DNA of 63,470 nt, the filler included. It is 7 parts of 7 records of this genome, joined end to end, with 100 filler letters (N's around TTAATTAATTAA, not from the genome) between each part and the next. Parts side by side here need not be neighbours in the genome. Positions count along the whole stretch, not along the records: positions 28,754 to 36,895 come from SRR20825010_2578; 6 more parts are not named here. The stretch is one strand, 5' to 3'. Shown here piece by piece: positions 2,093 to 59,609 of this stretch (within the stretch, counting starts at the first letter, position 1; the number at the start of each line of letters is the position of its first letter). A program made the position numbers and the translations under genes. Below the pieces are notes generated by a model. That model ran no database searches, was not told the origin of the DNA, and was given only the letters and a program-made list of their open reading frames with translations.

Positions 2093-2872
2093 TCAAACTG
2101 TCGGTATGGTCCCACCATCAATGACGAATTCTGAGCCGGTAATGGCTGCTGCCCGATCAGACGCCAGAAAAGCAATGAGATCTGCAACTTCACGGGGTTT
2201 TGTGGGGCGGCCAATCGGAATGCCGCCAAGTGCATCCATGATGATCTTCTTGCCACCTTCGTAATCCGTACCGGCTTGCTCGGCCAGCCTCTCAGCGAGC
2301 TTCACGGCTGCTTCCGTCTCGATCCAGCCCGGCGACACCCGCACCACGCGAACCCCCTTGGAGGCCACCTCTTTTGACAGCGCCTTGCTGTATGTTGACA
2401 GGGCCGCCTTTGCTGCTGCATAAGCGGTGGTCGACTCCGGCAACGGTAATTGCCGCTGGATTGACGACACGTGGATGACGACGCCACTTCCCCGCTCGAC
2501 CATTTCCGGAACGAGCTCCCGATCCAGTCGAACGGCCGGAAACAGGTTGAGATACAGTTCCTTGTGCCAATCATCTTCGGCAAGCGCCGCAAAGCCTCCG
2601 CCCGGCGCGGATGACCCGCCGAGCATATGCACTATGATATCCACACCGCCGAGACGCTCACGCGCGGCTCGGGCAACCATGGCGCAGTCCTTTTCACTGG
2701 TAAGGTCGGCAGGCACAAAAAGGGCTTTAGGAAGCGTCTCAGGTCGAGATCGAGCAGTCGTGAGCACCTTTGCACCTAGTTCTCGAAACAGTTCCACGGT
2801 AGCGGCGCCTGCCCCCTTCGTTCCTGCGGTAATGAGGATACGCTTGTCTGCAAAGGAGATGAATTCCTTCAT
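2093..2872 (-). CDS. Short-chain dehydrogenase/reductase
   Basis: TAGTKGAG Rossmann motif, YAAAK catalytic motif, C-terminal IDGG. Confidence 0.9.
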
Positions 2873-3192
2873 TCCCGGATCTCCAACGCAACGATCTTGT
2901 TGTCCCCTACGGTGAAGTGGAAATCGAGTTTCACCGGACTGTTGGGAAACGCTCCACTTACAATCGCACGAACACAGGTTTTATCGCCCGTAGTTGTCGT
3001 CTCGATAGGTTCATTGACGTGATGGGTCTGCTTCTTCGCTGCAGTCCACCATTCACGGATCGCGTGAACTCCCTCATGGAGGGCGCGCTCATCCTCGACC
3101 ACTGCATCGACAGAAAACAGTGCTGCCAGAGCAACGGGATCGTTGCGCCGGTCGGTTTCAAAATAGGCCTTCACAATGTCGGGCATGTCCAT
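2869..3192 (-). CDS. SnoaL/NTF2-like small protein
   Basis: 107 aa with [11 protein letters not shown] and GAFPNSPV patterns; overlaps the SDR start (coupled). Confidence 0.8.
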
Positions 3193-3295
3193 TGGAGTTA
3201 TTCCTTTCTGTAGAATACCGATGAGACATTTAGGGGTTGACGATTATTCTGACAAGAAGGATAAAGTGGCATGGAGTATTGAAAAAATCAGGACA

Positions 3296-13874: not shown

Positions 13875-13974
13875 NNNNNNNNNNNNNNNNNNNNNNNNNN
13901 NNNNNNNNNNNNNNNNNNTTAATTAATTAANNNNNNNNNNNNNNNNNNNNNNNNNNNNNNNNNNNNNNNNNNNN
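13875..13974. other. Artificial contig spacer
   Basis: N44-TTAATTAATTAA-N44 (stops in all six frames). Confidence 0.99.
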
Positions 13975-22815: not shown

Positions 22816-22915
22816 NNNNNNNNNNNNNNNNNNNNNNNNNNNNNNNNNNNNNNNNNNNNTTAATTAATTAANNNNNNNNNNNNNNNNNNNNNNNNNNNNN
22901 NNNNNNNNNNNNNNN
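22816..22915. other. Artificial contig spacer
   Basis: N44-TTAATTAATTAA-N44. Confidence 0.99.
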
Positions 22916-22916
22916 G

Positions 22917-23333
22917 CGCATTGACATGGAAGATCGCGGCGGTCGCATTGAAATGCTTCTGCCTTATGCAACGCTGGAACCGATCCGCGAATTGCTGCTC
23001 CAGATGTTCATGGGTGAGAAATTCGGTCGCGACTCGATTTGGGAAAGCCATCTCGCGACAGAGTTGTGGTCGACCAAAGTGCCTCTCGACGCAGTGCTGG
23101 ACGAACAGAAAATTTCCTTGCGCGAAGTCATGGATTTCAAAGTGGGGCAGACCCTTCTTTTGAACAATGGTCCGGATGCGCTGGTCGATATGCGTTGTGG
23201 CGGTGTCACGCTTGCTCAGGGCCGTATTGGTCGAATGAGCAATAATGTTGCCGTTCGGATCGAGAATGGTGTCAGCCGGAAAAAACGTGCCGCGACGGTC
23301 GCGAGCGTCAAAGCAAATGGAGAAGTGTCATGA
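22917..23333 (+). CDS. fliM: Flagellar motor switch protein FliM, C-terminal part
   Basis: DMEDRGG..LPYATLEPIRELLLQMFMGEKFGRDSIWE followed by a SpoA domain; 5' truncated. Confidence 0.9.
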   Translation, partial: RIDMEDRGGRIEMLLPYATLEPIRELLLQMFMGEKFGRDSIWESHLATELWSTKVPLDAVLDEQKISLREVMDFKVGQTLLLNNGPDALVDMRCGGVTLAQGRIGRMSNNVAVRIENGVSRKKRAATVASVKANGEVS

Positions 23334-23785
23334 GCCTGTCGATTGACCTGATGCTTGAGTTGATCGTTTGCGTGCTTCTGGCTGCAACCATCGGATATTG
23401 TGCGACAATTGATCGTCGTTTGCGTGCGATGCGCAATGGGCAGGATGGATTGCGGGAGTTAATTACCGATTTGTCGACTGCCACTGGGCAAGCCACCAAT
23501 GCCATTGCCCATTTACGGCAAGCTAGTGATGCCACGGGTTCCGCTTTGAGTGAACAGGTTATTCGTGGACGTGCGCTCGCAGACGAACTGTCGCTTATGG
23601 TTCAGGCGGGAAATGATATTGCTAATCGTTTGGGGGGCATTGAAACACGCCGTCCTGCCGCCGCTGTTGCACAGCCAGCATTCGCACCACGAATTGTCCA
23701 GCCGCGTAGTACTCAGACACGTCCTGCAAATACAAGTTCTTCCGAGCAGCATCCGCTTCTCGACCTTCTAAAGCGCGCCCGTTAA
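23330..23785 (+). CDS. DUF6468/PflI-like bitopic flagellar protein
   Basis: N-terminal TM, coiled coil, Pro-rich tail; directly downstream of fliM as in the Caulobacter-type operon. Confidence 0.65.
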   Translation: MSLSIDLMLELIVCVLLAATIGYCATIDRRLRAMRNGQDGLRELITDLSTATGQATNAIAHLRQASDATGSALSEQVIRGRALADELSLMVQAGNDIANRLGGIETRRPAAAVAQPAFAPRIVQPRSTQTRPANTSSSEQHPLLDLLKRAR

Positions 23786-23810
23786 GCGCCAGTTTTCAAG
23801 GTTCCGCATC

Positions 23811-24578
23811 ATGCTTGAGCGCCTCCGTCTTTTGCCGACTGTTATGCTGGTGGCAGCCATGCTGCTGGGACTCAAGGTCGTGCACATGGTTGGTGGTTTG
23901 GGTGATGTGTCGGTGATTGATCGCGCCGAAGCTCAGGCACCTGCAGCTAAGGAGTCGGAAGAGGCTGCTCCTGATCATGGTGCGAAGCCTGCTGAGGAGG
24001 CTCATGGAGAAGCCGAGGCGGAAGGCGGTCATGCCCCAAAGGCGAAGGGTGGTGGCCAGAGCTCCATGACCAATGAAGAAAAACAACAAGCTCTGGAAGC
24101 CCAGACAGCCAAACTTAAAGAAGGTGCTCAGATTAACCAGGCCGAAATGGCGGTTCTAGGTAGTCTCGCATCGCGGCGCGAGGAAATTGAACAGCGCGCG
24201 AAAGATTTCGATTTGCGCGAGCAGCTTTTGGCAGCTGCCGAAAAGCGTGTGGAAGAACGTATTGTTGAACTGAAAGCGCTGGAAGCGAAGATTAACAGCC
24301 AGATTGCGGCAACAGACGAGCAGAACGAAGAGCGCTTGAAGAGCGTTGTTCAGATGTACGAAACGATGAAACCGAAGGATGCGGCCCGCATTTTCGAACG
24401 CCTGGATATGGGTGTGTTGCTGGATGTGAGCAAACGGATGAACCCGCGTAAAATGTCTGCGGTATTGGCGGTCATGGACCCAGTTGCCGCACAGGATCTG
24501 ACGGTTGAACTCGCCACAGGCGACCGCTTGCCGGAAGTTCCGGGTGAGGCGCCGATCACGGCAAAGCCTGCTACCTGA
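23811..24578 (+). CDS. MotE-family flagellar protein (MgtE_N-like)
   Basis: RLLP-TM start, coiled coil, YETMKPKDAARIF...MNPRKMSAVLAVMDP. Confidence 0.8.
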   Translation: MLERLRLLPTVMLVAAMLLGLKVVHMVGGLGDVSVIDRAEAQAPAAKESEEAAPDHGAKPAEEAHGEAEAEGGHAPKAKGGGQSSMTNEEKQQALEAQTAKLKEGAQINQAEMAVLGSLASRREEIEQRAKDFDLREQLLAAAEKRVEERIVELKALEAKINSQIAATDEQNEERLKSVVQMYETMKPKDAARIFERLDMGVLLDVSKRMNPRKMSAVLAVMDPVAAQDLTVELATGDRLPEVPGEAPITAKPAT

Positions 24579-24820
24579 TAAAAGTGGTCTTCGGAGGTTG
24601 ATTTGTCACTTTTAGATGACAAATTTACTCACGCAGAGGCGGGTTTCCTTAGACCTCTCTTAACCCCGTTTACATAAACTTGATTAGCAGTTCCCTGCGA
24701 GCCGTCGGGAAACAGGTTCGCGTGGCCTTCGGAATTGCGTGTATTGGGCAAATAATGATTTTGGCTGAAGCATTGAGGCAGATCGGGAGACGTAGTGCAG
24801 AAATTGCGCTTGGCGTTTCC

Positions 24821-27800
24821 ATGCGCCTTTTTGCAGCGCTGGTTTTGGCGTTTGTGCTTTTTCCGTTAGCCAATGCGCGCGCGGCCATAGCAGTTACCAG
24901 CACCCTCAGCGAAAGCGGTGGCTATGGCCGGATCGTGCTGAATTGGCCGGGTGGCGTGCCGAAGCATAGCGAAGCACTCAATTCTGGCGTGCTGGTGTTG
25001 AAATTCGAAAAAGCATTTAGAGTTGATCTGGAAGAATTTGCACGCCAAATGCCCCGCGTGGTAGCTCTGGCTCGACAGGATCCTGATGGCAAGACATTGC
25101 GCCTCGGATTGAAATTCGATTATTGGCTGAATGTACGGGAGGCAGAAAATTCACTTTATGTGGATTTGCTTCCGTCCAATTGGTCCGGTCCGCCGCCGGC
25201 TTTGCCCGCTGATGTGATTGCCCGCGTCAAGGCGGCAGAAGAAGCTAAGCAGGCAGCAATCACCGAAGAAAAAGATGCGCGTGAAAAAGGGATTGTGGAT
25301 CCTGAAGCTCCTGTGCCTGCGCTTAGTGTTCGTGTGGCGGGGCATGACGGTATTACGCGTCTGGTTTTCGACTGGAACCAACCTGTTCTCTATTCGCTGG
25401 CGCAGCAAGATGGTTCTGCAACTATAACGTTTGATCGACCTGCAAAAGTGGCATTAGCGCAGATACGTGTTAATCCACCGCCTTATCTAAAGACGATCAG
25501 CGCCCTGGAGCGCAATGGCCGTCTTTCAGTTTTCATGAAGCTGGATAGCGGTGTTGTGGTGTCCGATTTCCGTGAGGACTTGGGGATCGTTCTAGATCTG
25601 AAGCCTTATCAATCGCTTGAAACTGAGCCTGAACCAGGGCAACAGGAACATAAAGCACAGGAACATGCCGCTGACCACGAGTCAGAGCCGGTTCATGAGG
25701 CCGAGACTGGACATAAGGCCGAACCCGGTGGTCAGGCTGTAACTGATGCTCACTCGCCACCGCATGCCTCATCGCATGATGAGGAGTCAAAGGCGGATAC
25801 ACACAAAGCGGACACACATGAGCCAGAGCTTTTGGCGCCGAGTACACCTCCAAACAGCCATGAACCTGATGCACATGCTGAAGTGTCCGAGCCGGAACTG
25901 ATGACGCCTGAGCCAGACCATGCGCCGAAAATGATTTCCCCGAAGACAGCCCATGTTGAACCAGAGGCTGTCATTTCGCACGAATCTGCGGGAGCGGAGG
26001 ACGGCGTTGAACTTGTGAAGGTGACAGCAAAGACGACAGAGAACCGGAGTGAACTTAGCTTTGAATGGCCGGTGCCAACTGGAGCTGCGATATTTACCCG
26101 ATCAAACATGCTCTGGGTGGTTTTCGACCGTGCGACTTTGTTCGATATGGGGGATGTCGATTTGTCGGTGATGAAGGGTTTCGGTACGCCGAAGTTTTAC
26201 AAATTACCGGATGCGACGGCACTCGTTTTTCCAATGACCGAGCCGGAAATGCTCATTGGGGCTGAGGAAAACGGCAATGTTTGGCGCATTTCATTGGCGC
26301 GATCTCTGGCAAGTACGGGCCGCTCCATAGGACTGTCGCGTAGCTGGTCTGCTTCCGGCGACGGCTATGTGTCTGCCGATTTGGTCGGGGCACGAAAAAT
26401 TATCGAATTCAAGGACCCTCAGGTTCGCGATACTCTGCTGGTTGCGACGGCGAGGGGTGCTACACAAGGTTTGCAGGCAGAGCGCAGTTTTGTGGAGTTC
26501 AAGGCGTTGAAGTCCGCGCAGGGCTTGGCGATTTCGCGTGTTGCGGATGATTTGAATGTAGCTGCGGCACCCGATGCGGTGATTATTTCGCGGCATAGTG
26601 GTTTGACGCTTTCGGCAGACCGCGGCGGGCGTTCAGATGTGGCGGATTTCGGTTCGCAAAACGCGTCGCCCGTCACGATGGACTTTGCAGCTTGGCGGGG
26701 CGATGGGGATTTTCTGTTCAACAAGCAGATACAGCAGAACCGTGTTGTGATGGCGGCTCCTGCGGACGAGGCGGCAGCGCGACTGGATTACGCTCGGTTC
26801 CTTTTGTCGTATCGCTTGGCTGAAGAAGCTATGACCCAGTTGGCCTTGGCAGTGAAAAGCGATGTGAAGCTTTCTTCGGACGCCTCATTCAGGGCGTTGC
26901 GTGGAGTTAGTGAAGTGCTTGCTAATCGCAATGCACTAGCAATCGAAGATCTCACAGCAAGCGGACTTGATCTTGATCCTTATGCCGCCGCGTGGCGCGG
27001 TTTGGCACGCGTGGAGCTTGGGCAGATGGATCAGGCCAATAAGGATTTCGATTTTTCCGCAGGTGTGATTGATTCCTTTGATAAGGAGTCCGCGACAGAA
27101 ATGCATCTATCCGCAGCTGATGCTGCATTGGCAATGAAGGATTTCTCATCTGCCCACAATCATCTAGGGCAGCTGAAAGACGGACTCGATACCAACGCGC
27201 TCAAGGCGCGTGCCTTTGTCCTGCGGGGACTATTGCTTGAGGAATTGGAAAAGCCTCAGGAGGCTCTCAATTTTTATGATAGGGCGATTGAGCAGGGTGA
27301 TCGCCACCAGATGGTGAAAGCGCGCTATGCCAAGGCTATTTTGCTCAACAAGAAGGGCGAAATGGATGATGACGCATTTATCGCAGAACTGAACCGCTTG
27401 CGTGTGATGTGGCGCGGTGACGAACTGGAGCGTCAGATCCTTTCGCGTATCGCCGAGAAGGCGTTGGAGCGTGGACAAGTTGTCGAAGCTTTGGTGGCCA
27501 TGCGTGAGGCGACAGCCCAGTTTCCGATGAGTGATGAAGCGCAGGTTCTGGGAGCAAAAATGCCCCAGGTATTTGCGGATTACTTTCTCGGTGCAGGCAC
27601 CACGGAAATGACAGCCGTGCAGGCGCTGTCTTTCTATTACGAGTTTCAGGATCTGACTCCTATCGGTCAGAGGGGCGACGAGTTGATCCGTCATCTAGCC
27701 GAGCGCCTCGTGTCTATTGATCTTCTGGCACAGGCAGAGGTTTTGCTGCGGTATCAGATTGAACAGCGCCTTTATGGCAGCGTGGCCAAAGCTCAGGTTG

Positions 27801-28420
27801 CGGCGCGTCTGGCCGGTGTCTATTTGCTGGATGACAAACCTAAGGATGCTTTGCAGATCATCCGTGCGACTATGCAGAACCAGTTGCCACCTGAGTTGAA
27901 CAAGAAGCGCATGCTACTGGAGGCACGTGCTCTTGCTTCATTGAAGCAATATGAATTGTCACTTGATCTTCTGAGCGAAGTGGAAGGCGAGCAGGCCGAA
28001 GAATTGCGCGCTGAAGTCTATTGGGAGCAGCAAAACTGGGATGCGGCGGGGCAAGAGGCGGAAAATATTGCTGAGAGCCGAAGTGCGGGACAGGGCGCGG
28101 GTATCGCATTGTCGGATGACGTGCGCCTCTATGTGATGCGGTCTGCCATTGCCTATTCGCTTGGAAGTAATGATCGCGGCCTATCGCGCTTGCGTGAGAA
28201 GTTTGGCGGCAAGATGCAGACGTCTGTGGATGCGAGTGCCTTTGCCGTTGTCAGCGATCCGATCGAGACATCCGGCGTTGCTTTCCGTCAGCTTGCGAGC
28301 CGTGTCGCTGCGGTGGATATGATTGAGCGCTTCGTTTCGTCCATTAAGGACGATGTCGTATTGGCAGAACCTGCCAAGGCTGCTGCCGTTGAGGACGTTG
28401 GCAAGACCGCCGTCAACTAG
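24821..28420 (+). CDS. Large periplasmic TPR protein of the flagellar cluster
   Basis: Signal peptide MRLFAALVLAFVLFPLANARA, AMIN-like beta repeats (RIVLNW, RLVFDW), WRGD and C-terminal TPRs. Confidence 0.75.
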   Translation: MRLFAALVLAFVLFPLANARAAIAVTSTLSESGGYGRIVLNWPGGVPKHSEALNSGVLVLKFEKAFRVDLEEFARQMPRVVALARQDPDGKTLRLGLKFDYWLNVREAENSLYVDLLPSNWSGPPPALPADVIARVKAAEEAKQAAITEEKDAREKGIVDPEAPVPALSVRVAGHDGITRLVFDWNQPVLYSLAQQDGSATITFDRPAKVALAQIRVNPPPYLKTISALERNGRLSVFMKLDSGVVVSDFREDLGIVLDLKPYQSLETEPEPGQQEHKAQEHAADHESEPVHEAETGHKAEPGGQAVTDAHSPPHASSHDEESKADTHKADTHEPELLAPSTPPNSHEPDAHAEVSEPELMTPEPDHAPKMISPKTAHVEPEAVISHESAGAEDGVELVKVTAKTTENRSELSFEWPVPTGAAIFTRSNMLWVVFDRATLFDMGDVDLSVMKGFGTPKFYKLPDATALVFPMTEPEMLIGAEENGNVWRISLARSLASTGRSIGLSRSWSASGDGYVSADLVGARKIIEFKDPQVRDTLLVATARGATQGLQAERSFVEFKALKSAQGLAISRVADDLNVAAAPDAVIISRHSGLTLSADRGGRSDVADFGSQNASPVTMDFAAWRGDGDFLFNKQIQQNRVVMAAPADEAAARLDYARFLLSYRLAEEAMTQLALAVKSDVKLSSDASFRALRGVSEVLANRNALAIEDLTASGLDLDPYAAAWRGLARVELGQMDQANKDFDFSAGVIDSFDKESATEMHLSAADAALAMKDFSSAHNHLGQLKDGLDTNALKARAFVLRGLLLEELEKPQEALNFYDRAIEQGDRHQMVKARYAKAILLNKKGEMDDDAFIAELNRLRVMWRGDELERQILSRIAEKALERGQVVEALVAMREATAQFPMSDEAQVLGAKMPQVFADYFLGAGTTEMTAVQALSFYYEFQDLTPIGQRGDELIRHLAERLVSIDLLAQAEVLLRYQIEQRLYGSVAKAQVAARLAGVYLLDDKPKDALQIIRATMQNQLPPELNKKRMLLEARALASLKQYELSLDLLSEVEGEQAEELRAEVYWEQQNWDAAGQEAENIAESRSAGQGAGIALSDDVRLYVMRSAIAYSLGSNDRGLSRLREKFGGKMQTSVDASAFAVVSDPIETSGVAFRQLASRVAAVDMIERFVSSIKDDVVLAEPAKAAAVEDVGKTAVN

Positions 28421-28479
28421 GCTCCATCTGATTTATTGATAATTAGGGAAAGCCAAGAGAGTGCTTTGCCGGAGGCAAG

Positions 28480-28518
28480 GAAAAGGCCACGCAGGATAAA
28501 TCCGGCGTGGCCTTTCTC
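28480..28518. terminator. Probable bidirectional intrinsic terminator
   Basis: AAAGGCCACGC...GCGTGGCCTTT stem between convergent genes. Confidence 0.6.
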
Positions 28519-28568
28519 GTTGTTGTTTGATGTGCTGTCGAGACAATCAAACGGAATGTCAGGCTTCG

Positions 28569-28652
28569 CTAAGTCCCGAAACTCTGGACCAAACTGCCTG
28601 CTATCAATGACCAGCCATCAACAAGAACAAAGAAGATCAGCTTGAAGGGCAG
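28569..28652 (-). CDS. fliP: Flagellar export protein FliP, C-terminal fragment
   Basis: Not in the ORF track. Reads LPFKLIFFVLVDGWSLIAGSLVQSFGT*, the conserved FliP end. Confidence 0.9.
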   Translation of the reverse strand: MPFKLIFFVLVDGWSLIAGSLVQSFGT

Positions 28653-28653
28653 G

Positions 28654-28753
28654 NNNNNNNNNNNNNNNNNNNNNNNNNNNNNNNNNNNNNNNNNNNNTTA
28701 ATTAATTAANNNNNNNNNNNNNNNNNNNNNNNNNNNNNNNNNNNNNNNNNNNN
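28654..28753. other. Artificial contig spacer
   Basis: N44-TTAATTAATTAA-N44. Confidence 0.99.
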
Positions 28754-28950
28754 ACCATATGATATGAACCATATTTGTAATGACCCAAGACAAATAAATA
28801 AAGTTAAGAAGGATATTATATAAATACTGTTCCCAATTAACGGATTTATCCAGTCACTACTCTGAGAAACATTTTGATGGCTTGAGGTTCGATAATGAAA
28901 GATTCTTTCAAAAATCTGTTATCACATATACCTTTATTTTTTGAGTTTAG

Positions 28951-29256
28951 TTAGGTGGAAAGGAGATTTTCATCCTTGCCGTGTTCATTGTTTATTTCAT
29001 CTGCTAGTGCCTCTAGAGTCTCCGCCAAATAGGAAGCCACATATTTGCGAAAGACCCAGACCTCAGCACACCAGAATCCTATATTTTCATTCCACCATAC
29101 GATTCCATTAAAGTTTCGGGCAGTATAGCGAGAGAATAAAGGTTGGTTTTTTATAACTTTTTGTATTTCAGAATTGATAGAATAATCAATATTCGTAATA
29201 ATGGCATCCCCTGAATGCTCTTTAAAGTTTGTTGGTAGTCTTAAATCACATTTCAT
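28951..29256 (-). CDS. Hypothetical protein (101 aa)
   Basis: ATG-started ORF with globular, Trp-rich composition; no recognised motif. Confidence 0.6.
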   Translation of the reverse strand: MKCDLRLPTNFKEHSGDAIITNIDYSINSEIQKVIKNQPLFSRYTARNFNGIVWWNENIGFWCAEVWVFRKYVASYLAETLEALADEINNEHGKDENLLST

Positions 29257-29454
29257 AGTGATAAAGGTATTAAACCGATTTGAAATTAAATCAATTGACT
29301 CAAAGCAAGGAAACGGAATACCTAAATTTTATTTGGTTTTTAAAAGAGTATATAAAAAGTGACTTTAGGGAACGGCTTTATGTCCCTTGCCCGAGAAATA
29401 TTTGCCGGGTTTATCTTTTGGAAATGTTGCTTGGATACTTATTACATTGTACTG

Positions 29455-29696
29455 ATTCCAATGCATGTACCCTGCAAGCGGACTTGACCCACTGTTTTTG
29501 GTGTCCTGATCCATCAGGGAGTGAAGTGCCCCGTTCCAGGTATTCCGGAACGGGGAAACGGAAGGGTAACCAAAAGGAGTGGGTCGTGTCCAAGACTTTT
29601 TTTTACGAAGCGCTTTTCCCGAAGTACCTGCCAGCAGTAGGCAGGGAGAGCGAAATGCAGGGAAATGGGCCTAGAAAGCTGTTTGTTGCTGGAATA
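29455..29696. other. Highly structured non-coding element (nested inverted repeats)
   Basis: At least five complementary pairs visible; detailed in findings. Confidence 0.55.
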
Positions 29697-30071
29697 CTTT
29701 AAAACAACAAAATTCCTAAGCCTTTTTAGATTTTTTCACTAAATTGGGAAACTGTTTTTTAACAGTCCTTTTCTTAATTAGAATTATAACAGCCCTACTG
29801 GAAATTCCCGGCACAAAGTCCCCTCTTCGACCGGTTTGGATAAGGAATTAAATTTACCGTGAAAAAATGTATTAACCTTTAACTTAAGGATTGTCCTATT
29901 TAATCCTATGGAACTGAGATTATTCAACTTTTAAGAAAATAATGCGGCGTGTCCCATGGAAAATATATTGAATTGAGAATCGAAAAACTTGGGCATAGCC
30001 AACTAATTTGGCAATATAAACCCAGTAAAGTTCATTTTTTAAACAAGTTGTATGCAAGCTTAAAATACTAG

Positions 30072-32675
30072 ATGGAAGAAATCTCACAACCAACAGAAGA
30101 ATTAAAAACGCTTGAAACTGAAGTTAAAGCTTTTGCAAATGCTCAACCTTATTGGGCAAGATACCTTTGTTCTGAAATTTTAGCAGGTAATGAAATTACA
30201 GATACTATAATTGATTCAGCTTATTCTTATTTGCTCGAAAAAATAGGTCTTAAAGAAGAAACTGATAAGCCTGAGCTTTCTATTTCATACAACCCAAATG
30301 CCTCTGATGATTATAAAGAAAACCTGTCTTTTGACTCGCTTGCAAACGTTGAAGGAGTTAATGCCCTTACCGAAAATCAAACTATAGAGTTAACATCAAA
30401 TTTGACTATCATATATGGAACAAATGGAGCTGGGAAATCTGGTTATGTTCGCCTTTTAAAAAACGTTTTTTATTCCAAAGACAAGGCAAACATTCTTCCT
30501 AACATCAACATTGATTCCGGACACAAACCAATAGCAGCAACCTTTAATTTTTCTTCAGAGGGAACTAACATTCCTTTGAAATATCCTGATAACATCGGAA
30601 ATGGCATTTTTAATCAGTTTGCAATTTTTGACGGAGATATTGGGAAAAAACACCTTAGCTTAAGAAATGATTTTAGCTTCCGCCCTGCTGGACTGCAATT
30701 GTTTAATGAATTTAATGCTGCATTAGAGAAATTAAACGGCAAGCTAAATATTGAAATTCAATCTAAAAGTACTGCCAATCCCTTTGCAGATGATGACATT
30801 TTTCAAGGAGAATCTGAAATCAAAACATTGTTAATTCAGCTTTCGCATAATTCTAAACTTGAAGATTTAAATGCTCATTTACCTTATAATGAAGAGGAAA
30901 AAGCAAAGAAAGTTCAACTAGACAAAGAATATGATGATTTAAAAATTGCTTTAGCTCAAAAAGACAAAGCATCGAAAGAGTTGCAAACTATAAAAGCCCA
31001 ATTAGCAGCTCGAAAACAGACTTTAGTTAACACGAACACTTGGTTCGCTCAAGACCAACTAAATAGTGTAATTAAAGCAATCACTAATTGTAAAACCAAA
31101 GAGGATACAGCACAAAAAGAAGGCGTAGAAAAATTCAAAACCGATAAAATTGAAAATATTGGTTCTACAGAATGGAAACAATTCATTGAAGCGGCCGCAA
31201 AATTTGCTTCTACTCAAAACGAAGGTGAATACCCTTCACTTGGTGACAATTGCTTACTGTGTCAGCAAGCAATCAATGATGATGTTCCCAAAAGCTTAAT
31301 TAGCAGCTATTGGGCTTACATTAAAAGTGTTGCTGAACAAGAAGCAAAGACGGCCAAAGAAAAGCTTGCAAAGTTTAAAGCGGATTACGAAAAATTAAGT
31401 TTCAATCAATTTCCTGAAACAGACACTTTAGCCGTTTGGTTAAAGGACAGGTACGAAACGGTTTTAGCCAATTTAAAAGATGAACTAAAGAAACAGGAAA
31501 CATTAAGACAAACACTTGTATCAAACATCAATGACAAAAAGGATATTTTACAAGTTGAAGTACAATTAGATTTAAGTGCATTAGATGCCATAAGCAAAAC
31601 GGTAGATAAAGAAATTAAAGCATTTGAAGAAGATGAGCAAAATAAAAAACTTGGCGAACTGTTAAAAAAGAAAACTTATTTGGCTCATAAAGAAAAACTG
31701 GAAGCTCGATACCCAGATATTGAAACCCTACACAAGAACTTGATTTGGGTAAACAAAGCCAACCAGTTTAATAAAAGGTCAATAAAGAAATCATCTACAG
31801 ATACTGAAAAGAGACTTTCCGAAGAATATTTCAACAACGATTATATCAATGAATTTAATGACGAATGCGATAAATTAAATGGAAAGTTTGGAATTGAAAT
31901 AGATGCAAGAAGTTCAGATGCACAATCCAACCGCCAACTTTTTCTTAAAGGCGAAGACCCTTCTGCAATTTTAAGTGAGGGAGAACAAAAAGTAATTGCT
32001 CTGGCTGACTTTATTGCAGAAATCAACATTACCACAATTAACAGAGGAGTCATTCTTGACGACCCTGTTAACTCGCTTGATGAAGAACGGAAGAGTTTAA
32101 TTGCGAATAGGCTCGTTTCAATTTCAGAAACTAAACAAGTAATTATATTTACTCATGATTTAGTTTTTGTCTCCTGTCTTCTTAATTATGCTCAAGACAA
32201 ATCTTTAACTCACGAGTGCCATTGGATTGAAAATAGAAATGGTAACCCGGGTCAAGTTTGGTTAAGAAACTCACCTACATATGAAAAAATTTATCGTAAT
32301 GCTGAGCCAGTAAAGAAGCTATACTCCGAAGCGAATAAAACCGAGTGCCCTCCTGAACAGAGAGAGTTCCTAGTTAAAAGTGGATTCACAGCATTACGTA
32401 CCTGCTATGAGGTTTTAGTAATTAATGACTTGTTTAAAAATGTTGTTCAGCGATACAATGAACGTGTAAGCGTTGATAGTCTTTCCAGTGTCTATTTTGA
32501 CGAAGAATTAACAAACGAACTTCTTGACAGTTTTGCTCAATGTTGCAGATACATGGAAGGCCATACGCATAGTGATAAATATGCTTACATGAAACCAGAA
32601 CCTTCAAACCTTAATGAAGAAATTCAAAGATATGAAGCGTTAAGAAGTAAAATTCGAAAATTTAAAAAGAAATAA
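30072..32675 (+). CDS. Rad50/RloC-like ABC ATPase with zinc hook and C-terminal HEPN-like domain (putative anti-phage nuclease)
   Basis: Walker A GTNGAGKS, coiled coil with CLLC, signature LSEGE, Walker B/D-loop ILDDPVNSLD, H-switch FTHD, C-terminal LRTCYE and RYMEGH (Rx4H). Confidence 0.75.
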   Translation: MEEISQPTEELKTLETEVKAFANAQPYWARYLCSEILAGNEITDTIIDSAYSYLLEKIGLKEETDKPELSISYNPNASDDYKENLSFDSLANVEGVNALTENQTIELTSNLTIIYGTNGAGKSGYVRLLKNVFYSKDKANILPNINIDSGHKPIAATFNFSSEGTNIPLKYPDNIGNGIFNQFAIFDGDIGKKHLSLRNDFSFRPAGLQLFNEFNAALEKLNGKLNIEIQSKSTANPFADDDIFQGESEIKTLLIQLSHNSKLEDLNAHLPYNEEEKAKKVQLDKEYDDLKIALAQKDKASKELQTIKAQLAARKQTLVNTNTWFAQDQLNSVIKAITNCKTKEDTAQKEGVEKFKTDKIENIGSTEWKQFIEAAAKFASTQNEGEYPSLGDNCLLCQQAINDDVPKSLISSYWAYIKSVAEQEAKTAKEKLAKFKADYEKLSFNQFPETDTLAVWLKDRYETVLANLKDELKKQETLRQTLVSNINDKKDILQVEVQLDLSALDAISKTVDKEIKAFEEDEQNKKLGELLKKKTYLAHKEKLEARYPDIETLHKNLIWVNKANQFNKRSIKKSSTDTEKRLSEEYFNNDYINEFNDECDKLNGKFGIEIDARSSDAQSNRQLFLKGEDPSAILSEGEQKVIALADFIAEINITTINRGVILDDPVNSLDEERKSLIANRLVSISETKQVIIFTHDLVFVSCLLNYAQDKSLTHECHWIENRNGNPGQVWLRNSPTYEKIYRNAEPVKKLYSEANKTECPPEQREFLVKSGFTALRTCYEVLVINDLFKNVVQRYNERVSVDSLSSVYFDEELTNELLDSFAQCCRYMEGHTHSDKYAYMKPEPSNLNEEIQRYEALRSKIRKFKKK

Positions 32676-32682
32676 AGCCAGC

Positions 32683-32741
32683 ATACAACAACACCTAAAC
32701 GCAATGCCCTACGGGACACTGCCATAGCCAAAATGTTGTAC
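32683..32741 (+). other. attC-like (59-bp) recombination site
   Basis: R'' ATACAAC, 5-nt spacer, L''-like CTAAACGC, central CCC-TAC-GGG hairpin, L'-like GCCATAG, R' GTTGTAC; begins 7 nt after the ATPase stop. Confidence 0.6.
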
Positions 32742-32762
32742 CTCATGCTAAAAAAGAACCTG

Positions 32763-33419
32763 ATGATAATAAAGCAAATCATAGTACAATTTGATACAGA
32801 CTCTAGGAGAGGGTTTGATGAACACGATATCAGTTCCGCATTAAGAAAACTTGTCCCAGAAGATAAATCACAAATTGATGACACACTTAAGGCTGAGTTA
32901 ATGGCCTTTGATTTTGCTGAGGATTATCAAGATAAAAAGACTGGATGGGGAACTTATTTTGGGCCTATGATGGTCTGGAACAATGGAGATGGCACAGCAA
33001 CAGAATCACCATCAATCAAACTAATCACTCCAGAGATGATTGATTATTGGGAAAAAAGGGCTACTGAATGTGTAAATCCAATAATAATAGCACGCTACAG
33101 CGGATTAGTTTGGGACTTCAAGAATAAAATTACAGGAATAAATCCACCACATGAGATTTGCCGAATATATACAAAAGCTTTAATTGATCAGGCCAATGGC
33201 GATTTTCATAAATATGAGGTTAATACCTTTCGGAAACTGGCACGAGCGTTAAAACTGTCGATTAGCCTTAATGACGATGATTTAATCAAGAAATGTAAAG
33301 ATTCCCTAATCAATTTTGAAAATAGGCACTCGCAAGATACTAAGTCTAGCGTATATTGCACCAAATTGAAACAAAGTCATTCATTTTCAATTGATTATAC
33401 GATTCTACATTTTCTTTAA
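32763..33419 (+). pseudogene. Truncated N-terminal part of a DUF4209-associated (DUF7380-like) protein
   Basis: WGTYFGPM...YWEKRA...ARYSGLVWDF pattern recalled for this family. The coding character degrades after ...SQDTK (~33344) into the non-coding integrase flank. Confidence 0.55.
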
Positions 33420-33448
33420 TATCATCTAATATCAATTGATTTCAACAT

Positions 33449-33557
33449 TTGTTGTACCTATGTTGTACCTGAAAAGAACAATAATTTCGTATCTTTATGG
33501 TGTACTTAGGTAAAGGAATACATTCAAAATGGAATGTTGTACCTATGTTGTACCTGA
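33449..33557 (+). repeat. Two tandem pairs of (A)TGTTGTACCT direct repeats, probable integrase arm-type sites
   Basis: TGTTGTACCTATGTTGTACCTGA identical at 33450-33472 and 33535-33557; degenerate ATGGTGTACTT at 33497. Confidence 0.8.
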
Positions 33558-33587
33558 TTTGACTTTCGTACTCAAAACAGGTCAATT

Positions 33588-34802
33588 ATGTCATCAAACG
33601 CAAAGATAGTTCTACGTAAAAAACCAAACAGTAAAGGGCTTTACCCATTAGCTGTTCGAATTACAAAAAATCGTCGTTCAACATATCAATATATAGGTCA
33701 TTATATTGACATAGAGGATTGGGACGAAAAAAATATTCGAGTAAGAAAGTCTAATTCAAATGCTGATAGTTTAAACAAGTTGCTATCACAGGAACTCTCG
33801 AACGCCAATAAAGCACTTATTGACTTACAATCCGAGCATAAAGATGCATCTGCCAACCAAATCAAAAAAGAGATATATGCCTCGGGAAACTCTGCTACCT
33901 TTTTTGAACTAGCACAAGAGCATCTGGACGAATTGGAAATCGCCGAAAAATTAAACCGCTTATCTACGGATAGTGCTTTGGTTAGCTATATCATAAAGTT
34001 TAATAAATCAAAACAGTTGGCTTTTCAGGAAATTAACGAACGCTTCCTAAAAAAGCTGATGATATATTTGAAAGCCAAACACGAACTTTCAGAAACATCA
34101 GTAATGAACATCTTAGTCCTCATTAGGTTGTTGTTCAACAGAGCTATTAAGCTCAAAATAGTTAGTAGGGAATTATATCCTTTTGGTGGTGACAAGATTA
34201 AAATTAAGTTTCCAGAAACAAGCAAAGTCGGGTTGAATATTATTGAAGTAAGAGCCATAGAAGCTCTTGAGAATTTAACTTTGAGTGAAATACACACTCG
34301 AAATGTCTGGCTCTTTAGTTTTAATTTTGCCGGAATGCGAGTTACCGATGTATTGTGGACAAAGTGGTCTGACATATACGACAAAAGGTTGCATTATAGA
34401 ATGAACAAAAACTCAAAATTACTATCATTAAAAATTCCAGATAAGGTTTTCAAAATTTTAGATTATTACAAAGAAGACAAAAGATATGCAACCGATTTTG
34501 TTTTTCCCGAATTGAAAAAAGCGAATCTCGATGATGCAAAAGATGTCTATAACAAGAGAAAGACAGCTACCAAGAAATTTAATGACAACTTAAAATCTAT
34601 AGCTAAAAAGGCGAAAATTGATAAGAAAATTACAATGCATATTGCGAGGCATACCTTTGGCAATATTGCTGGTGATACCATCCATCCCTTTATGCTGCAA
34701 AAATTGTATCGTCATAGCGATTTAAAAACCACATTGAACTATCAAGCTAATTTTATTCACAAAGAAGCAGATGATGCTTTGGATAGTGTGGTAAATTTTT
34801 GA
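33588..34802 (+). CDS. Tyrosine integrase, Bacteroidota type (arm-binding + SAM-like + catalytic domains)
   Basis: N-terminal YPLAVRITKNR arm domain; catalytic GMRVTD, HIARH, YRHS, LNY. Confidence 0.92.
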   Translation: MSSNAKIVLRKKPNSKGLYPLAVRITKNRRSTYQYIGHYIDIEDWDEKNIRVRKSNSNADSLNKLLSQELSNANKALIDLQSEHKDASANQIKKEIYASGNSATFFELAQEHLDELEIAEKLNRLSTDSALVSYIIKFNKSKQLAFQEINERFLKKLMIYLKAKHELSETSVMNILVLIRLLFNRAIKLKIVSRELYPFGGDKIKIKFPETSKVGLNIIEVRAIEALENLTLSEIHTRNVWLFSFNFAGMRVTDVLWTKWSDIYDKRLHYRMNKNSKLLSLKIPDKVFKILDYYKEDKRYATDFVFPELKKANLDDAKDVYNKRKTATKKFNDNLKSIAKKAKIDKKITMHIARHTFGNIAGDTIHPFMLQKLYRHSDLKTTLNYQANFIHKEADDALDSVVNF

Positions 34803-34887
34803 ACTATTATCAGCCATCTGCAAATATTTTAAAGTCATATTTCAACATATTCAATTGCCATTCCCTTACCTTTACCAACATAATTTT

Positions 34888-35799
34888 ATGTTTATGGTGT
34901 TAAAGGTTAAATGGACTGAATTTAAAAGTAGTCTTGAAAATTTTCAGTCCGAAGGAAATGCGCTTATTAAAAAATATAAAGCAGCAAGAACTGAGGATTT
35001 ATTAAATGAATTGAAAGAGGAAAAACAATCGTGGGAAAGCGATGTAATCAGTTATGTAAAGGCTTCTTTTGACCCTGAACACACCAATTTTGCATACGAG
35101 TTTAAGGCTCAACAAGGATATAATTTCGGAATGAAATTAGGTATCGACCAAAGAGTCAAAAACACTATTCAAACCATTAAAGATGAAATTAATGGGCTTG
35201 ATTACTATTTAAAAATATTATTCATTTCAGATGCTATTGTGCGAGCTGATGACATTGATTTAGAAGAGCGTAAAAACCTTGATACCGAAGGCATTCTTGA
35301 TCTTATACTTTCTAAACTATATGAACTGTATAATGATGGGAAATACTATTCTATTAAGTGGATTCTTGAAGGTAACGGCCTAAAGTTAGGTGGGCGTAGC
35401 GAAGATTGGGACTATGGTAGAATGCTTGAAGAACGAGGCCTTATTGAGACTATGAATGGTCGTGAGGTAAATGCCAAACTAAAACTTGAGGGAAAGTATG
35501 CCATTGAACAAGCCAGAAAATCCCAAGTGCCCGACTACTCAAAAATTAGCGATTCTGATGAAGAATTAAAAACACTTCTCAAAGAGGTACTTGCCGAAGT
35601 TAAAAGATCAGGATATGGTCAGCAAATCATCTTCGATGAGTTTGATGAGCTGCGCAAAGACATTCCGCATCTTAGCAAAAAATCGTTTGGTCAGTTATTA
35701 AAATCAAAACTTGGCGATTTGGTCGCAGCCAAAGCCTTTGACAAAGCTATCGCCAGCGACATATTCAAACAATTTACTAACCAAATATTTCCATTTTAA
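34888..35799 (+). CDS. Hypothetical protein with a winged-helix-like central segment
   Basis: Long ORF; ILSKLYEL...LEERGLIE...LKLEGKYAIE resembles a wHTH. Confidence 0.7.
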   Translation: MFMVLKVKWTEFKSSLENFQSEGNALIKKYKAARTEDLLNELKEEKQSWESDVISYVKASFDPEHTNFAYEFKAQQGYNFGMKLGIDQRVKNTIQTIKDEINGLDYYLKILFISDAIVRADDIDLEERKNLDTEGILDLILSKLYELYNDGKYYSIKWILEGNGLKLGGRSEDWDYGRMLEERGLIETMNGREVNAKLKLEGKYAIEQARKSQVPDYSKISDSDEELKTLLKEVLAEVKRSGYGQQIIFDEFDELRKDIPHLSKKSFGQLLKSKLGDLVAAKAFDKAIASDIFKQFTNQIFPF

Positions 35800-35802
35800 C
35801 GT

Positions 35803-36582
35803 ATGAGAATATGGGCAGGTATTAAAAATAGAATAGTTCAATTCTTCCGAAAAGAACCACCACCAGAATATGAGGTGACAGAATATGTGTTTTCGGATAG
35901 ACAACCTCTTGATGGTTCTTCGACCATTTCATTTTTCGTAAACAATCCCAAGCCAGATGTAAGTGTTACCAGAACTTTTGATAGCGAAGACCAAGCCGTT
36001 AATTGGCTTATGGAAAATCGAGATTTCAAAAAGATGTTATTTAGTAATGTATTTCCATCCGCAAATTCGGTGAAATACCAATGTGGCGTTAAAGAACCTA
36101 TCACAATCCCAAACAAAATGCCAGGGGATATTGACATTCTTCTGTATGAACAAGGAAAGGAACAAAATGCGGTTGGAATAGAATGTAAAATAGTAAAAAC
36201 CGAATCGCTTGAAAATCAACCACCAAAAATAAACAAGATTACAAGCGTTCAAAAAAAGGGAACTATTCAGGCAAATGGATATACCGAAATTGGATTCAAC
36301 AGGGTTTATCTGCTAATCATACTATTGGATGATGGCCGGCATTACAAAAACCCCAATGTTATGTTCAGAACTACACCTTTTAAATGGTTGAAAGAATTGT
36401 ATGGTTTTGACTGGCAAACCCGAATGAGTGATGATATTGGAATTATTTACGTTCACATAAATCAATTTACTACTAACCATATAAATCAGACCAAAGGATT
36501 GGGATTGCGTGTAGAACGTGAAGCAATACCAATTTTACAACCTGAAGAACTAACTGATAAAATCAAAAAACTGGATTCATAG
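35803..36582 (+). CDS. Putative PD-(D/E)xK nuclease
   Basis: GDIDIL...GIECK plus downstream QANGY (QxxxY); 3 nt from the upstream stop. Confidence 0.6.
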   Translation: MRIWAGIKNRIVQFFRKEPPPEYEVTEYVFSDRQPLDGSSTISFFVNNPKPDVSVTRTFDSEDQAVNWLMENRDFKKMLFSNVFPSANSVKYQCGVKEPITIPNKMPGDIDILLYEQGKEQNAVGIECKIVKTESLENQPPKINKITSVQKKGTIQANGYTEIGFNRVYLLIILLDDGRHYKNPNVMFRTTPFKWLKELYGFDWQTRMSDDIGIIYVHINQFTTNHINQTKGLGLRVEREAIPILQPEELTDKIKKLDS

Positions 36583-36588
36583 GATAAT

Positions 36589-36681
36589 TTGAAACGTAAA
36601 GGAACTTGCAGGATATGCGGAAATCATAGTAAACTAACGTTTGAGCACGTTACACGAGAGTGTAAACTGAACTCTCTATAG
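36589..36681 (+). pseudogene. Truncated HNH-endonuclease-like N-terminus
   Basis: Not in the ORF track. TTG start reads MKRKGTCRICGNHSKLTFEHV, then stops after 30 aa. Confidence 0.55.
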
Positions 36682-36699
36682 TTTGCCTGATTCATTTTC

Positions 36700-36894
36700 T
36701 CAAGTGCTCGGTTCTTGCCTAAAACATTCCACCAACATCCCATAAAGTTCTGGATGTTTTCTTTTTAGTAAATCCGCTCGTTCAAAAAAATACTCTGAAG
36801 CAACCGCAAAGAATTCAGCTTGATTTGTTCCACCATATTTACGAATATCTGAATGGTTATCGTTAATCGCTTCCATTTCTTTATGGATTAAGTT
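36700..36894 (-). CDS. Zinc-dependent peptidase M90 (MtfA-like), C-terminal fragment
   Basis: Reads ...IRKYGGTNQAEFFAVASEYFFERADLLKRKHPELY...*; cut by the spacer. Confidence 0.85.
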   Translation of the reverse strand, partial: NLIHKEMEAINDNHSDIRKYGGTNQAEFFAVASEYFFERADLLKRKHPELYGMLVECFRQEPST

Positions 36895-36895
36895 T

Positions 36896-36995
36896 NNNNN
36901 NNNNNNNNNNNNNNNNNNNNNNNNNNNNNNNNNNNNNNNTTAATTAATTAANNNNNNNNNNNNNNNNNNNNNNNNNNNNNNNNNNNNNNNNNNNN
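36896..36995. other. Artificial contig spacer
   Basis: N44-TTAATTAATTAA-N44. Confidence 0.99.
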
Positions 36996-49207: not shown

Positions 49208-49307
49208 NNNNNNNNNNNNNNNNNNNNNNNNNNNNNNNNNNNNNNNNNNNNTTAATTAATTAANNNNNNNNNNNNNNNNNNNNNNNNNNNNNNNNNNNNN
49301 NNNNNNN
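49208..49307. other. Artificial contig spacer
   Basis: N44-TTAATTAATTAA-N44. Confidence 0.99.
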
Positions 49308-59509: not shown

Positions 59510-59609
59510 NNNNNNNNNNNNNNNNNNNNNNNNNNNNNNNNNNNNNNNNNNNNTTAATTAATTAANNNNNNNNNNNNNNNNNNNNNNNNNNNNNNNNNNN
59601 NNNNNNNNN
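59510..59609. other. Artificial contig spacer
   Basis: N44-TTAATTAATTAA-N44. Confidence 0.99.

Follow-up and report, generated by a model that had tools for sequence, protein, structure and literature searches.

An ATPase gene in a stretch of DNA of 63,470 nt (the window) is bordered by two short motifs in inverted orientation and is followed by a hairpin resembling attC, the recombination site of integron cassettes. This raises the question of whether the gene and its hairpin were captured together as a cassette and, if so, by what kind of system. We consider it very likely that positions 30048-32735 are the cassette of an integron-like system, composed of a PDC-S06 ATPase gene and a folded attC-type site, and that this copy is now an orphan. 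An earlier note on this DNA had proposed a divergent Bacteroidota cassette system, and this overall reading is supported by a family of related sites, by a pairing rule between neighbouring cassettes and by an attI-like site. The features concerned are the following:

28754-36895, no strand: contig with the cassette, 8,142 nt, delimited by runs of N and by alignment with locus L001
29952-30047, plus strand: attI-like site; its last letters are ...TAAACAAG, and the crossover falls after the G at 30047, before the T at 30048
30048-32735, plus strand: proposed gene cassette of 2,688 bp, which opens with TT... and closes with the G of R' in the attC
30072-32675, plus strand: AAA_13 ATPase gene, 867 aa (PF13166, E 6.7e-13), stop codon TAA at 32673-32675
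32681-32743, plus strand: attC-type site, from covariance models R1 and R2 and the type-A alignment
32681-32689: R'' box, GCATACAAC
32690-32694: spacer
32695-32702: L'' box
32703-32720: central stem-loop
32721-32727: L' box
32728-32734: spacer
32735-32743: R' box, GTTGTACCT, with the crossover at 32735|32736

The motifs at the two borders, GTTGTATGCAAGCTT (30047-30061) and AAGCCAGCATACAAC (32675-32689), are reverse complements at 13 of 15 positions, with a perfect 9-mer. The hairpin proper covers 59 nt (32683-32741) and includes GTTGTAC at 32735-32741; on recheck, the motif coordinates, the ORF, the GTTGTAC, the 59 nt and the 2,688 bp given previously were all correct. Of the 9-mer GCATACAAC, the window has two copies where 0.32 would be expected. 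When the two gene flanks were shuffled in 2,000 trials, 13/15 or better was obtained once and an exact 9-mer 18 times, and a 5-kb region holds 107 inverted pairs of at least 11 nt. Among 71 real ORFs of at least 200 aa, 13/15 was reached by three, two of which are the ATPase gene itself (in the window and in locus L002) and the third an unrelated ORF of locus L004. In L004, the ORF at 2097-3263 carries a 14/15 inverted repeat at its flanks, AAAA[T/C]GGCACATAAC, and is possibly an insertion sequence.

The left end of the cassette, TTGTATGC, pairs with R'' (GCATACAA). Beyond the AAC/GTT triplet, R'' fits the upstream border at 6 of 7 positions versus 3 of 7 for its own R', as had been observed before. 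Judged on the window's own letters, the case for a cassette is suggestive, not decisive. Both borders, however, are the ends of conserved site families, attI-like upstream and attC downstream.

In general, attC sites are imperfect palindromes of about 57-141 nt in which R'' (RYYYAAC) and R' (GTTRRRY) stand around the L boxes. In the window, R'' (ATACAAC) and R' (GTTGTAC) each agree with this consensus at 6 of 7 positions, and the L boxes pair as CTA/TAG and CGC/GC(G). We searched window positions 29352-33350 against 401 genomes of the family of G001, a genome that carries an identical 7.5-kb segment. Positions 32686-32732 recurred at 80-94% identity in dozens of family genomes. At 22 fetched loci in other Flavobacteriaceae genomes, which together with the window form the 23 type-A loci, the core AAC-AACAC-CTATACGCAATGCCCTTCGGGACACTGCGCATAGCC-AAACC-GTT lies 5-30 nt past a stop codon and before another co-oriented ORF. 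Conservation of type A spans YAAC to GTT only and ends there. The cargo around the sites differs: similarity over the 600 nt upstream was seen in 1 of 253 locus pairs, and over the 600 nt downstream in 0 of the 253. Similar sites do therefore recur, with 22 near-identical copies standing after unrelated genes.

A covariance model built from the 23 type-A sites (R1), which recovered further, longer site types in genome G268, scores the window attC at 69.2 bits (E 1.3e-13), and a second model built mainly from G268 sites (R2) at 55.6 bits (E 1.9e-10), these E-values being rough. A custom covariance model over the Flavobacteriaceae was a check that the earlier note had proposed: at E<=1e-6, R2 places sites in 121 of 151 sampled genomes of this family, many of the site-bearing genomes having at least 21 scored candidates. 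The downstream palindrome, first described as attC-like, thus belongs to a widespread family. Rfam gave no match at the gathering threshold over the window, nor at E<=1 over 29300-33600.

The fold itself is conserved among divergent sites. In an alignment of 15 sites of several sequence types (A7), fitted to the model in a way that favours structure, 83% of cells are paired compared with 68.2% after shuffling (0/500 shuffles reach the observed value) and 22-39% in slid controls. Pairs changed on both sides amount to 14 of 22 (0/500 shuffles), and covariation is 0.253 versus 0.096 when shuffled (0/500). The bottom strand folds better at all 23 type-A sites, at 45 of 49 sites in G268 and also in the window; recombination may proceed on this strand in single-stranded form.

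Arrays of such sites were found in relatives, each co-oriented with a recombinase gene:

G268: array of 49 sites
G028: array of 3 sites
G210: array of 11 sites
G081:C6: array of 12 sites
G081:C7: array of 6 sites
G296: array of 5 sites

Every array-type recombinase gene with downstream DNA available (6/6) heads a co-oriented array. The largest array, in G268:C1:2885001-2935000, has 49 full-length sites by R2, of which 10 match by construction; all are on the same strand, with a median spacing of 774 nt, and the last lies 755 nt from a 404-aa recombinase gene. We compared the 7 bases beyond AAC in each R'' with the 7 bases after GTT in R' boxes, taking at least 6/7 as pairing. R'' paired with the R' of the upstream neighbour in 27 of 48 cases, versus 2 of 49 for its own R' and 57 of 2304 for non-adjacent R' boxes. 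When the site type with a constant R'' was set aside, neighbour pairing rose to 27/32. We read this pattern as the product of circular cassettes recombining at G|TT. The G|TT model put forward for the window (6/7 versus 3/7) is thus borne out by the same rule in the array of a relative. Among the type-A loci, an upstream match of at least 9/11 was observed in 11 of 23 versus 61 of 506 controls, and of at least 10/11 in 4 of 23 versus 3 of 506. The first cassette after the recombinase obeys the rule in G296, G268 and G028.

Two further observations were made in these arrays. The constant-R'' type comprises 17 of the 49 G268 sites (L030-L032), all of one 129-nt type with R'' TTAACTAAC and no pairing with the upstream border; its spread or maintenance may be different. 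Inside the small array of G028 (L029, G028:C1:1350001-1370000), two 525-aa ORFs run opposite to the cassettes and are possibly insertion sequence copies that broke up the array.

At the upstream border, TAAACAAG|TT ends a conserved site of which 7 other genomes have homologues. The sites share a pairwise identity of 0.74 across their final 60 nt and of 0.81 across the final 20, with a fall to 0.45 past the TT. In G296, the stop codon of a recombinase gene precedes the site by about 80-130 nt, and the product of this gene shares 39-44% identity with the G268 and G028 recombinases. Because of this placement after the recombinase, together with the pairing of the first cassette, we call the site attI-like, in agreement with the earlier proposal made from the window. 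It adjoins a recombinase gene in G296 only; no such gene is found beside it in the window and the 6 other genomes. No integrase remnant was detected upstream of it in the window, L020, L021 or L054-58, apart from one 16-aa trace in L055 (E 6.9).

Canonical IntI reads the folded attC through its IntI-specific domain. The array-linked recombinase is best aligned with archaeal XerA (5hxy, 138 bits). Its alignment to VchIntIA (2a3v) falls into two pieces, with chain residues 198-246 unmatched against 4 query residues; we take these residues to be the IntI-specific domain, which contacts extrahelical bases. Model TIGR02249 gives 209 bits, below its cut-off of 265, and NF040815 (XerA / 'integron integrase') gives 232 bits for a cut-off of 220. 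From these comparisons, the array-linked recombinases appear to be Xer-like enzymes without the IntI-specific domain and not canonical IntI, a point that the earlier note had missed. An N-terminal extension of ~105 aa may take the place of this domain. Their family counts at least 7,985 proteins at E<=1e-30, and in many Flavobacteriaceae genera they bear the NCBI name 'site-specific tyrosine recombinase/integron integrase'.

On the window's contig, no IntI was found among the proteins or as a remnant, as had been stated. A recombinase in trans was sought in G001, which encodes a homologue with 44% identity, 684 kb from the identical segment; no array stands beside this gene. Action in trans, as first suggested, is plausible in view of this homologue and of the recombinases beside arrays in relatives (6/6).

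These results would fit the following history. The cassette would once have been a circle with the R box GCATACAAC / GTTGTATGC, and the circle junction of the 2,688-bp unit would read ...CCAAAATG|TTGTATGC.... A tyrosine recombinase would have joined the circle into the attI-like site with crossover at G|TT, and this crossover would have left TTGTATGC at the left end of the cassette and a hybrid R' (GTTGTACCT) at the right end. The likely catalyst is the Xer-like recombinase family that heads arrays of up to 49 cassettes in Flavobacteriaceae.

Downstream of the cassette lie three features that bear on another interpretation of the hairpin:

32763-33347, plus strand: DUF4209/PDC-S39 gene, 5' part (~196 codons), cut off at ~33345-33350
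33450-33557, plus strand: tandem repeats, probably arm-type, two pairs of 11-nt (A)TGTTGTACCT at 33450-72 and 33535-57
33588-34802, plus strand: tyrosine integrase, 404 aa, with arm-binding domain (CTnDOT-like type; PF17293, PF13102, PF00589)

The next promoterless ORF of the earlier note does follow the site, but it represents the first ~196 codons of a DUF4209 gene of ~587 aa. Homologues at 93% identity have 587-593 aa, and similarity to them ends at 33344-33356. The gene is intact (587 aa) in L002 and truncated in the window and L001, where the integrase module begins; a C-terminal remainder was looked for in the window and in G001 without success. The integrase, 850 nt downstream and previously overlooked, scores only 31.7 bits with TIGR02249 and belongs to another family than the cassette recombinase. 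The tandem 11-nt repeats are probably its arm-type sites. The same tandem repeat is present 30-50 nt upstream of 3 paralogous integrase genes in G001 (L007, L008, L009), and window positions 33381-33469 are 77.5% identical to the L007 arm region. The R' box and its neighbours (ATGTTGTACCT, 32733-43) are identical to this arm repeat. Since GTTGTA-type R' boxes are common in the attC family (GTTGTACAAC in L026, GTTGTACCAC in G268), the identity may be a coincidence. A reading in which GTTGTAC was one more arm-type site, the fifth, and the region no more than cargo of an integrative and conjugative element (ICE) was dropped once the hairpin proved to be a family-wide element.

In G001, the three integrase genes share an order of elements: a tRNA-3'-end-like piece, ~110 nt, the tandem repeat (TGTTGTACC; TTCTGTACC in L009), 30-50 nt, and the ATG. 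The tRNA-like pieces were judged by eye, and ARAGORN calls no tRNA there; nor did it find one across the window or 8 loci. Beyond the window's integrase, two ORFs at 34855-35799 (314 aa) and 35803-36582 (259 aa), common to L001, have no Pfam or PADLOC match and may be cargo of the integrase module.

How do other explanations compare? The hairpins could be self-spreading intergenic palindromic repeats, similar to repetitive extragenic palindromes (REPs), miniature inverted-repeat transposable elements (MITEs) or terminators, with no mobility of gene-sized units. The type-A core is indeed unusually uniform across genomes (80-94%), the hairpins sit past stop codons as terminators do, and the 17 of 49 G268 sites with a constant R'' break the pairing rule. 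Repeats of this kind would nevertheless leave unexplained why R'' pairs with its neighbour (27/48) and rarely with non-adjacent sites (57/2304), why 49 same-strand sites lie downstream of a recombinase, why 6/6 such genes head arrays and why conservation ends exactly at G|TT, and we regard this explanation as very improbable. Marginally less credible still is that the motifs belong to the integrase at 33588-34802, GTTGTAC at 32735 being a fifth arm-type site and the ATPase lying within the attachment region. This would account for TGTTGTACCT having exactly 5 copies in the window, all within 32734-33555, and for its tandem form upstream of the three G001 integrase genes. The 32734 copy is, however, also present in L002, which has an intact DUF4209 gene without an integrase of this kind after it; among attC sites, R' boxes of the GTTGTA type are common, as seen above; and the rest of the hairpin is a conserved attC core unrelated to arm regions.

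Chance, that is an inverted repeat at gene flanks followed by an ordinary weak hairpin, has in its favour the modest z-scores of the fold given below, the 107 inverted pairs of the region and the 18 shuffles of 2,000 with an exact 9-mer. Against these stand the single shuffle of 2,000 reaching 13/15, the coincidence of the borders with the ends of two independently conserved site families and the covariance-model E-values of 1e-10 to 1e-13. Chance is contradicted by the comparative data, and we give it hardly any credence.

Several observations nevertheless weigh against a cassette, in addition to the reservations made above on models and alignment. Folded as DNA, the window attC reaches -8.6 kcal/mol on the plus strand (z -1.7; 9/200 shuffles as good) and -11.0 kcal/mol on the minus strand (z -2.2; 6/200). 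By energy alone the hairpin thus appears unremarkable, and its significance comes from comparison with relatives. As the linked recombinase is predicted to have no IntI domain, the canonical mechanism is not simply transferable, and no array-type recombinase was found on the window's contig. R2 found no second attC on the contig, L001 or L002 at E<=5. Compared with the family consensus, the window attC has one L'' change, one deleted L' base and a T for C before the G, and in the attI-like site the 3' half of the inner hairpin is degenerate. The near-identical loci L001 and L002 cross both cassette borders in the same arrangement, and contigs of 4 sequencing runs bridge both borders likewise. 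Finally, distant homologues of the ATPase (60-76% aa identity; 10 loci) are without cassette borders, and 7 intact (L003, L004, L011-L015) and 1 decayed (L010) homologues directly precede the same downstream gene; the L013 locus ends at the stop of the ATPase homologue.

These points bear largely on the present state of the copy. L001 and L002, both from metagenome-assembled genomes (MAGs), are respectively 99.99% identical to the window over 29352-36895 and 98.9% over 29331-33350, and 20 run records, taken from 11 studies, contain the stretch. Contigs of the 4 runs showed neither a joint at 30047/30048 or 32735/32736, nor a circle, nor an empty-site form, the last being among the checks proposed earlier; because assembled contigs drop rare variants, the absent joints say nothing on excision. 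There is no sign that this copy moves, the arrangement being identical in all near-identical copies. The contexts of L001 and L002 are ICE-like, with ParB, DUF932, RadC, IS110 and metal-resistance genes. The window copy is an orphan platform made of an attI-like site, one cassette and a truncated second gene. Its activity has probably ceased, and it now travels as a passenger in ICE-like cargo DNA; a single capture of the cassette, followed by spread inside such DNA, is probable. Two side observations concern these copies: a joint between 33554 and 34626 in X13 has only 22 nt on one side, and downstream of DUF4209 in L002 only degenerate attC-like ends are seen by eye.

The cargo gene is a candidate defence gene. 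PADLOC assigns it to candidate PDC-S06 (PDLC04891, E 7.5e-124, residues 16-863 of 867), and an anti-phage role would follow from this similarity. In L004, the gene downstream of the ATPase homologue encodes an N6/N4 DNA methylase, with McrBC upstream of the homologue and ResIII beyond the methylase; ATPase homologues stand there between McrBC and a type III-like methylase/ResIII pair. Alignment of the window's intergenic region with the regions downstream of the distant homologues showed no relation. The earlier suggestion that the same ORF be sought in other contexts with identical borders thus had a divided outcome, the near-identical copies keeping the borders and the distant homologues not having them.

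Upstream of the attI-like site lies one further conserved element:

29352-29951, plus strand: conserved stretch, 68-69% nt identity to G393 (L020) and G044 (L021)

It has no consistent reading frame in tblastx and appears non-coding. It holds a 23-nt inverted repeat (29480-29502 / 29569-29591) and may serve the platform as a regulatory or RNA element. Just before it, a 16-nt motif, GCAAGGAAACGGAATA, ends a repeat of ~85 nt and is found in the window (29305-29320), in L001 (6545-6560 and 7268-7283) and in L002 (1110-1124). In three contexts this repeat precedes ICE-type genes on the minus strand (ParB, DUF932), and it probably acts as a promoter or leader common to ICE genes.

The window as a whole consists of 7 contigs joined by linkers of the form N44-TTAATTAATTAA-N44:

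13875-13974: linker
22816-22915: linker
28654-28753: linker
36896-36995: linker
49208-49307: linker
59510-59609: linker

Since these join separate contigs, gene neighbourhood across them is meaningless, and stretches beyond the linkers belong to other contigs; 22916-28653 (53-55% GC) is one such separate contig. A megablast of 29000-35000 gave no plasmid match.

The likeness to known integrons is extensive. Shared features are imperfect palindromes of attC type, in which L boxes and variable loops accompany R boxes of the form AAC...GTT, the G|TT crossover leaving hybrid R' boxes, and, here in G296 only, an attI-like site beside the recombinase gene. With sedentary chromosomal integrons, the relatives also share one-gene, same-strand cassettes in arrays of up to 49 sites, and the closest counterparts are those in which the integrase is co-oriented with the cassettes, the 'inverted integrase' group described, in the portion of the paper available, by Cury 2016 (PMC4889954). 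The window copy may be likened to the integrase-less remnants termed CALIN, or to a single attC, terms taken from the available part of PMC9024848. In contrast to IntI integrons, the recombinase of the relatives has no counterpart of VchIntIA 198-246 and fits NF040815 and XerA 5hxy best.

The host phylum is also unusual for an integron. In the available part of the IntegronFinder 2.0 paper (PMC9024848), the entries for Bacteroidetes are limited to In0 (2016) and a single complete integron, that of Salinibacter ruber. A review, in the section at hand, counts Bacteroidota among phyla with integrons (PMC8618304), and the accessible text of a preprint on Vibrio defence cassettes lists them among clades 'previously found without any integrons' (10.1101/2024.07.02.601686). 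Defence genes as integron cassettes are the subject of that preprint and of 'Mobile integrons encode phage defense systems' (10.1101/2024.07.02.601719). As far as the available portions of both go, single-gene candidate defence systems are shared with the present locus, but the published cassettes belong to Pseudomonadota integrons with a canonical IntI. The insertion of cassettes elsewhere than at att sites (10.1101/2022.09.11.507474, in the part available) accounts for solitary cassettes away from an integrase; the window cassette differs from these in standing at a recognisable attI-like site and not at a random genomic GTT.

A further parallel is rAID-1 of gut Bacteroidales (10.1101/471110, available in part), where co-directional arrays headed by XerD-family recombinases, with repeats described as 'reminiscent of integrons', occur in 226 of 423 Bacteroidales genomes. 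To count as rAID-1, a cluster needs at its 5' end a XerD-like recombinase that shares at least 44% identity with the B. fragilis reference, and at least 2 co-directional low-GC genes downstream. A recombinase at the 5' end and co-directional arrays are also found in our relatives, the likeness being one of architecture only. The cargo of rAID-1 consists of immunity genes against type VI secretion system (T6SS) toxins, here of candidate anti-phage genes, and the available portion of the rAID-1 description contains no hairpin structure, G|TT crossover or pairing rule. A literature search, supplementary files aside, turned up no paper that describes the fold of the hairpin, the G|TT rule or arrays in Flavobacteriaceae.

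Bacteroidota are considered to have almost no integrons, and integrons are considered to be defined by an integrase with a special domain for reading folded attC. In the present data, 121 of the 151 family genomes sampled have attC-type sites that follow the G|TT rule, and such sites are linked to a recombinase predicted to have no IntI domain. On balance, we lean towards the view that Flavobacteriaceae, and perhaps Bacteroidota including rAID-1, hold a second integron lineage, in which an Xer-like recombinase without the IntI domain would recombine folded attC-type hairpins at G|TT and build arrays of dozens of cassettes, candidate anti-phage genes passing between chromosomal arrays and conjugative elements. 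If this is true, the IntI domain, held to be essential for recognition of folded attC, would not be required for integron-style capture. Three questions have now become testable: whether capture can work without this domain, how gut rAID-1 arrays gain genes, and whether cassettes are the form in which marine flavobacteria store and trade anti-phage genes. The locus also gives a concrete history for a candidate defence gene, with probably one capture and then ICE-like spread across the samples of 11 studies, and it points to a gene-capture system that is common in marine flavobacteria.

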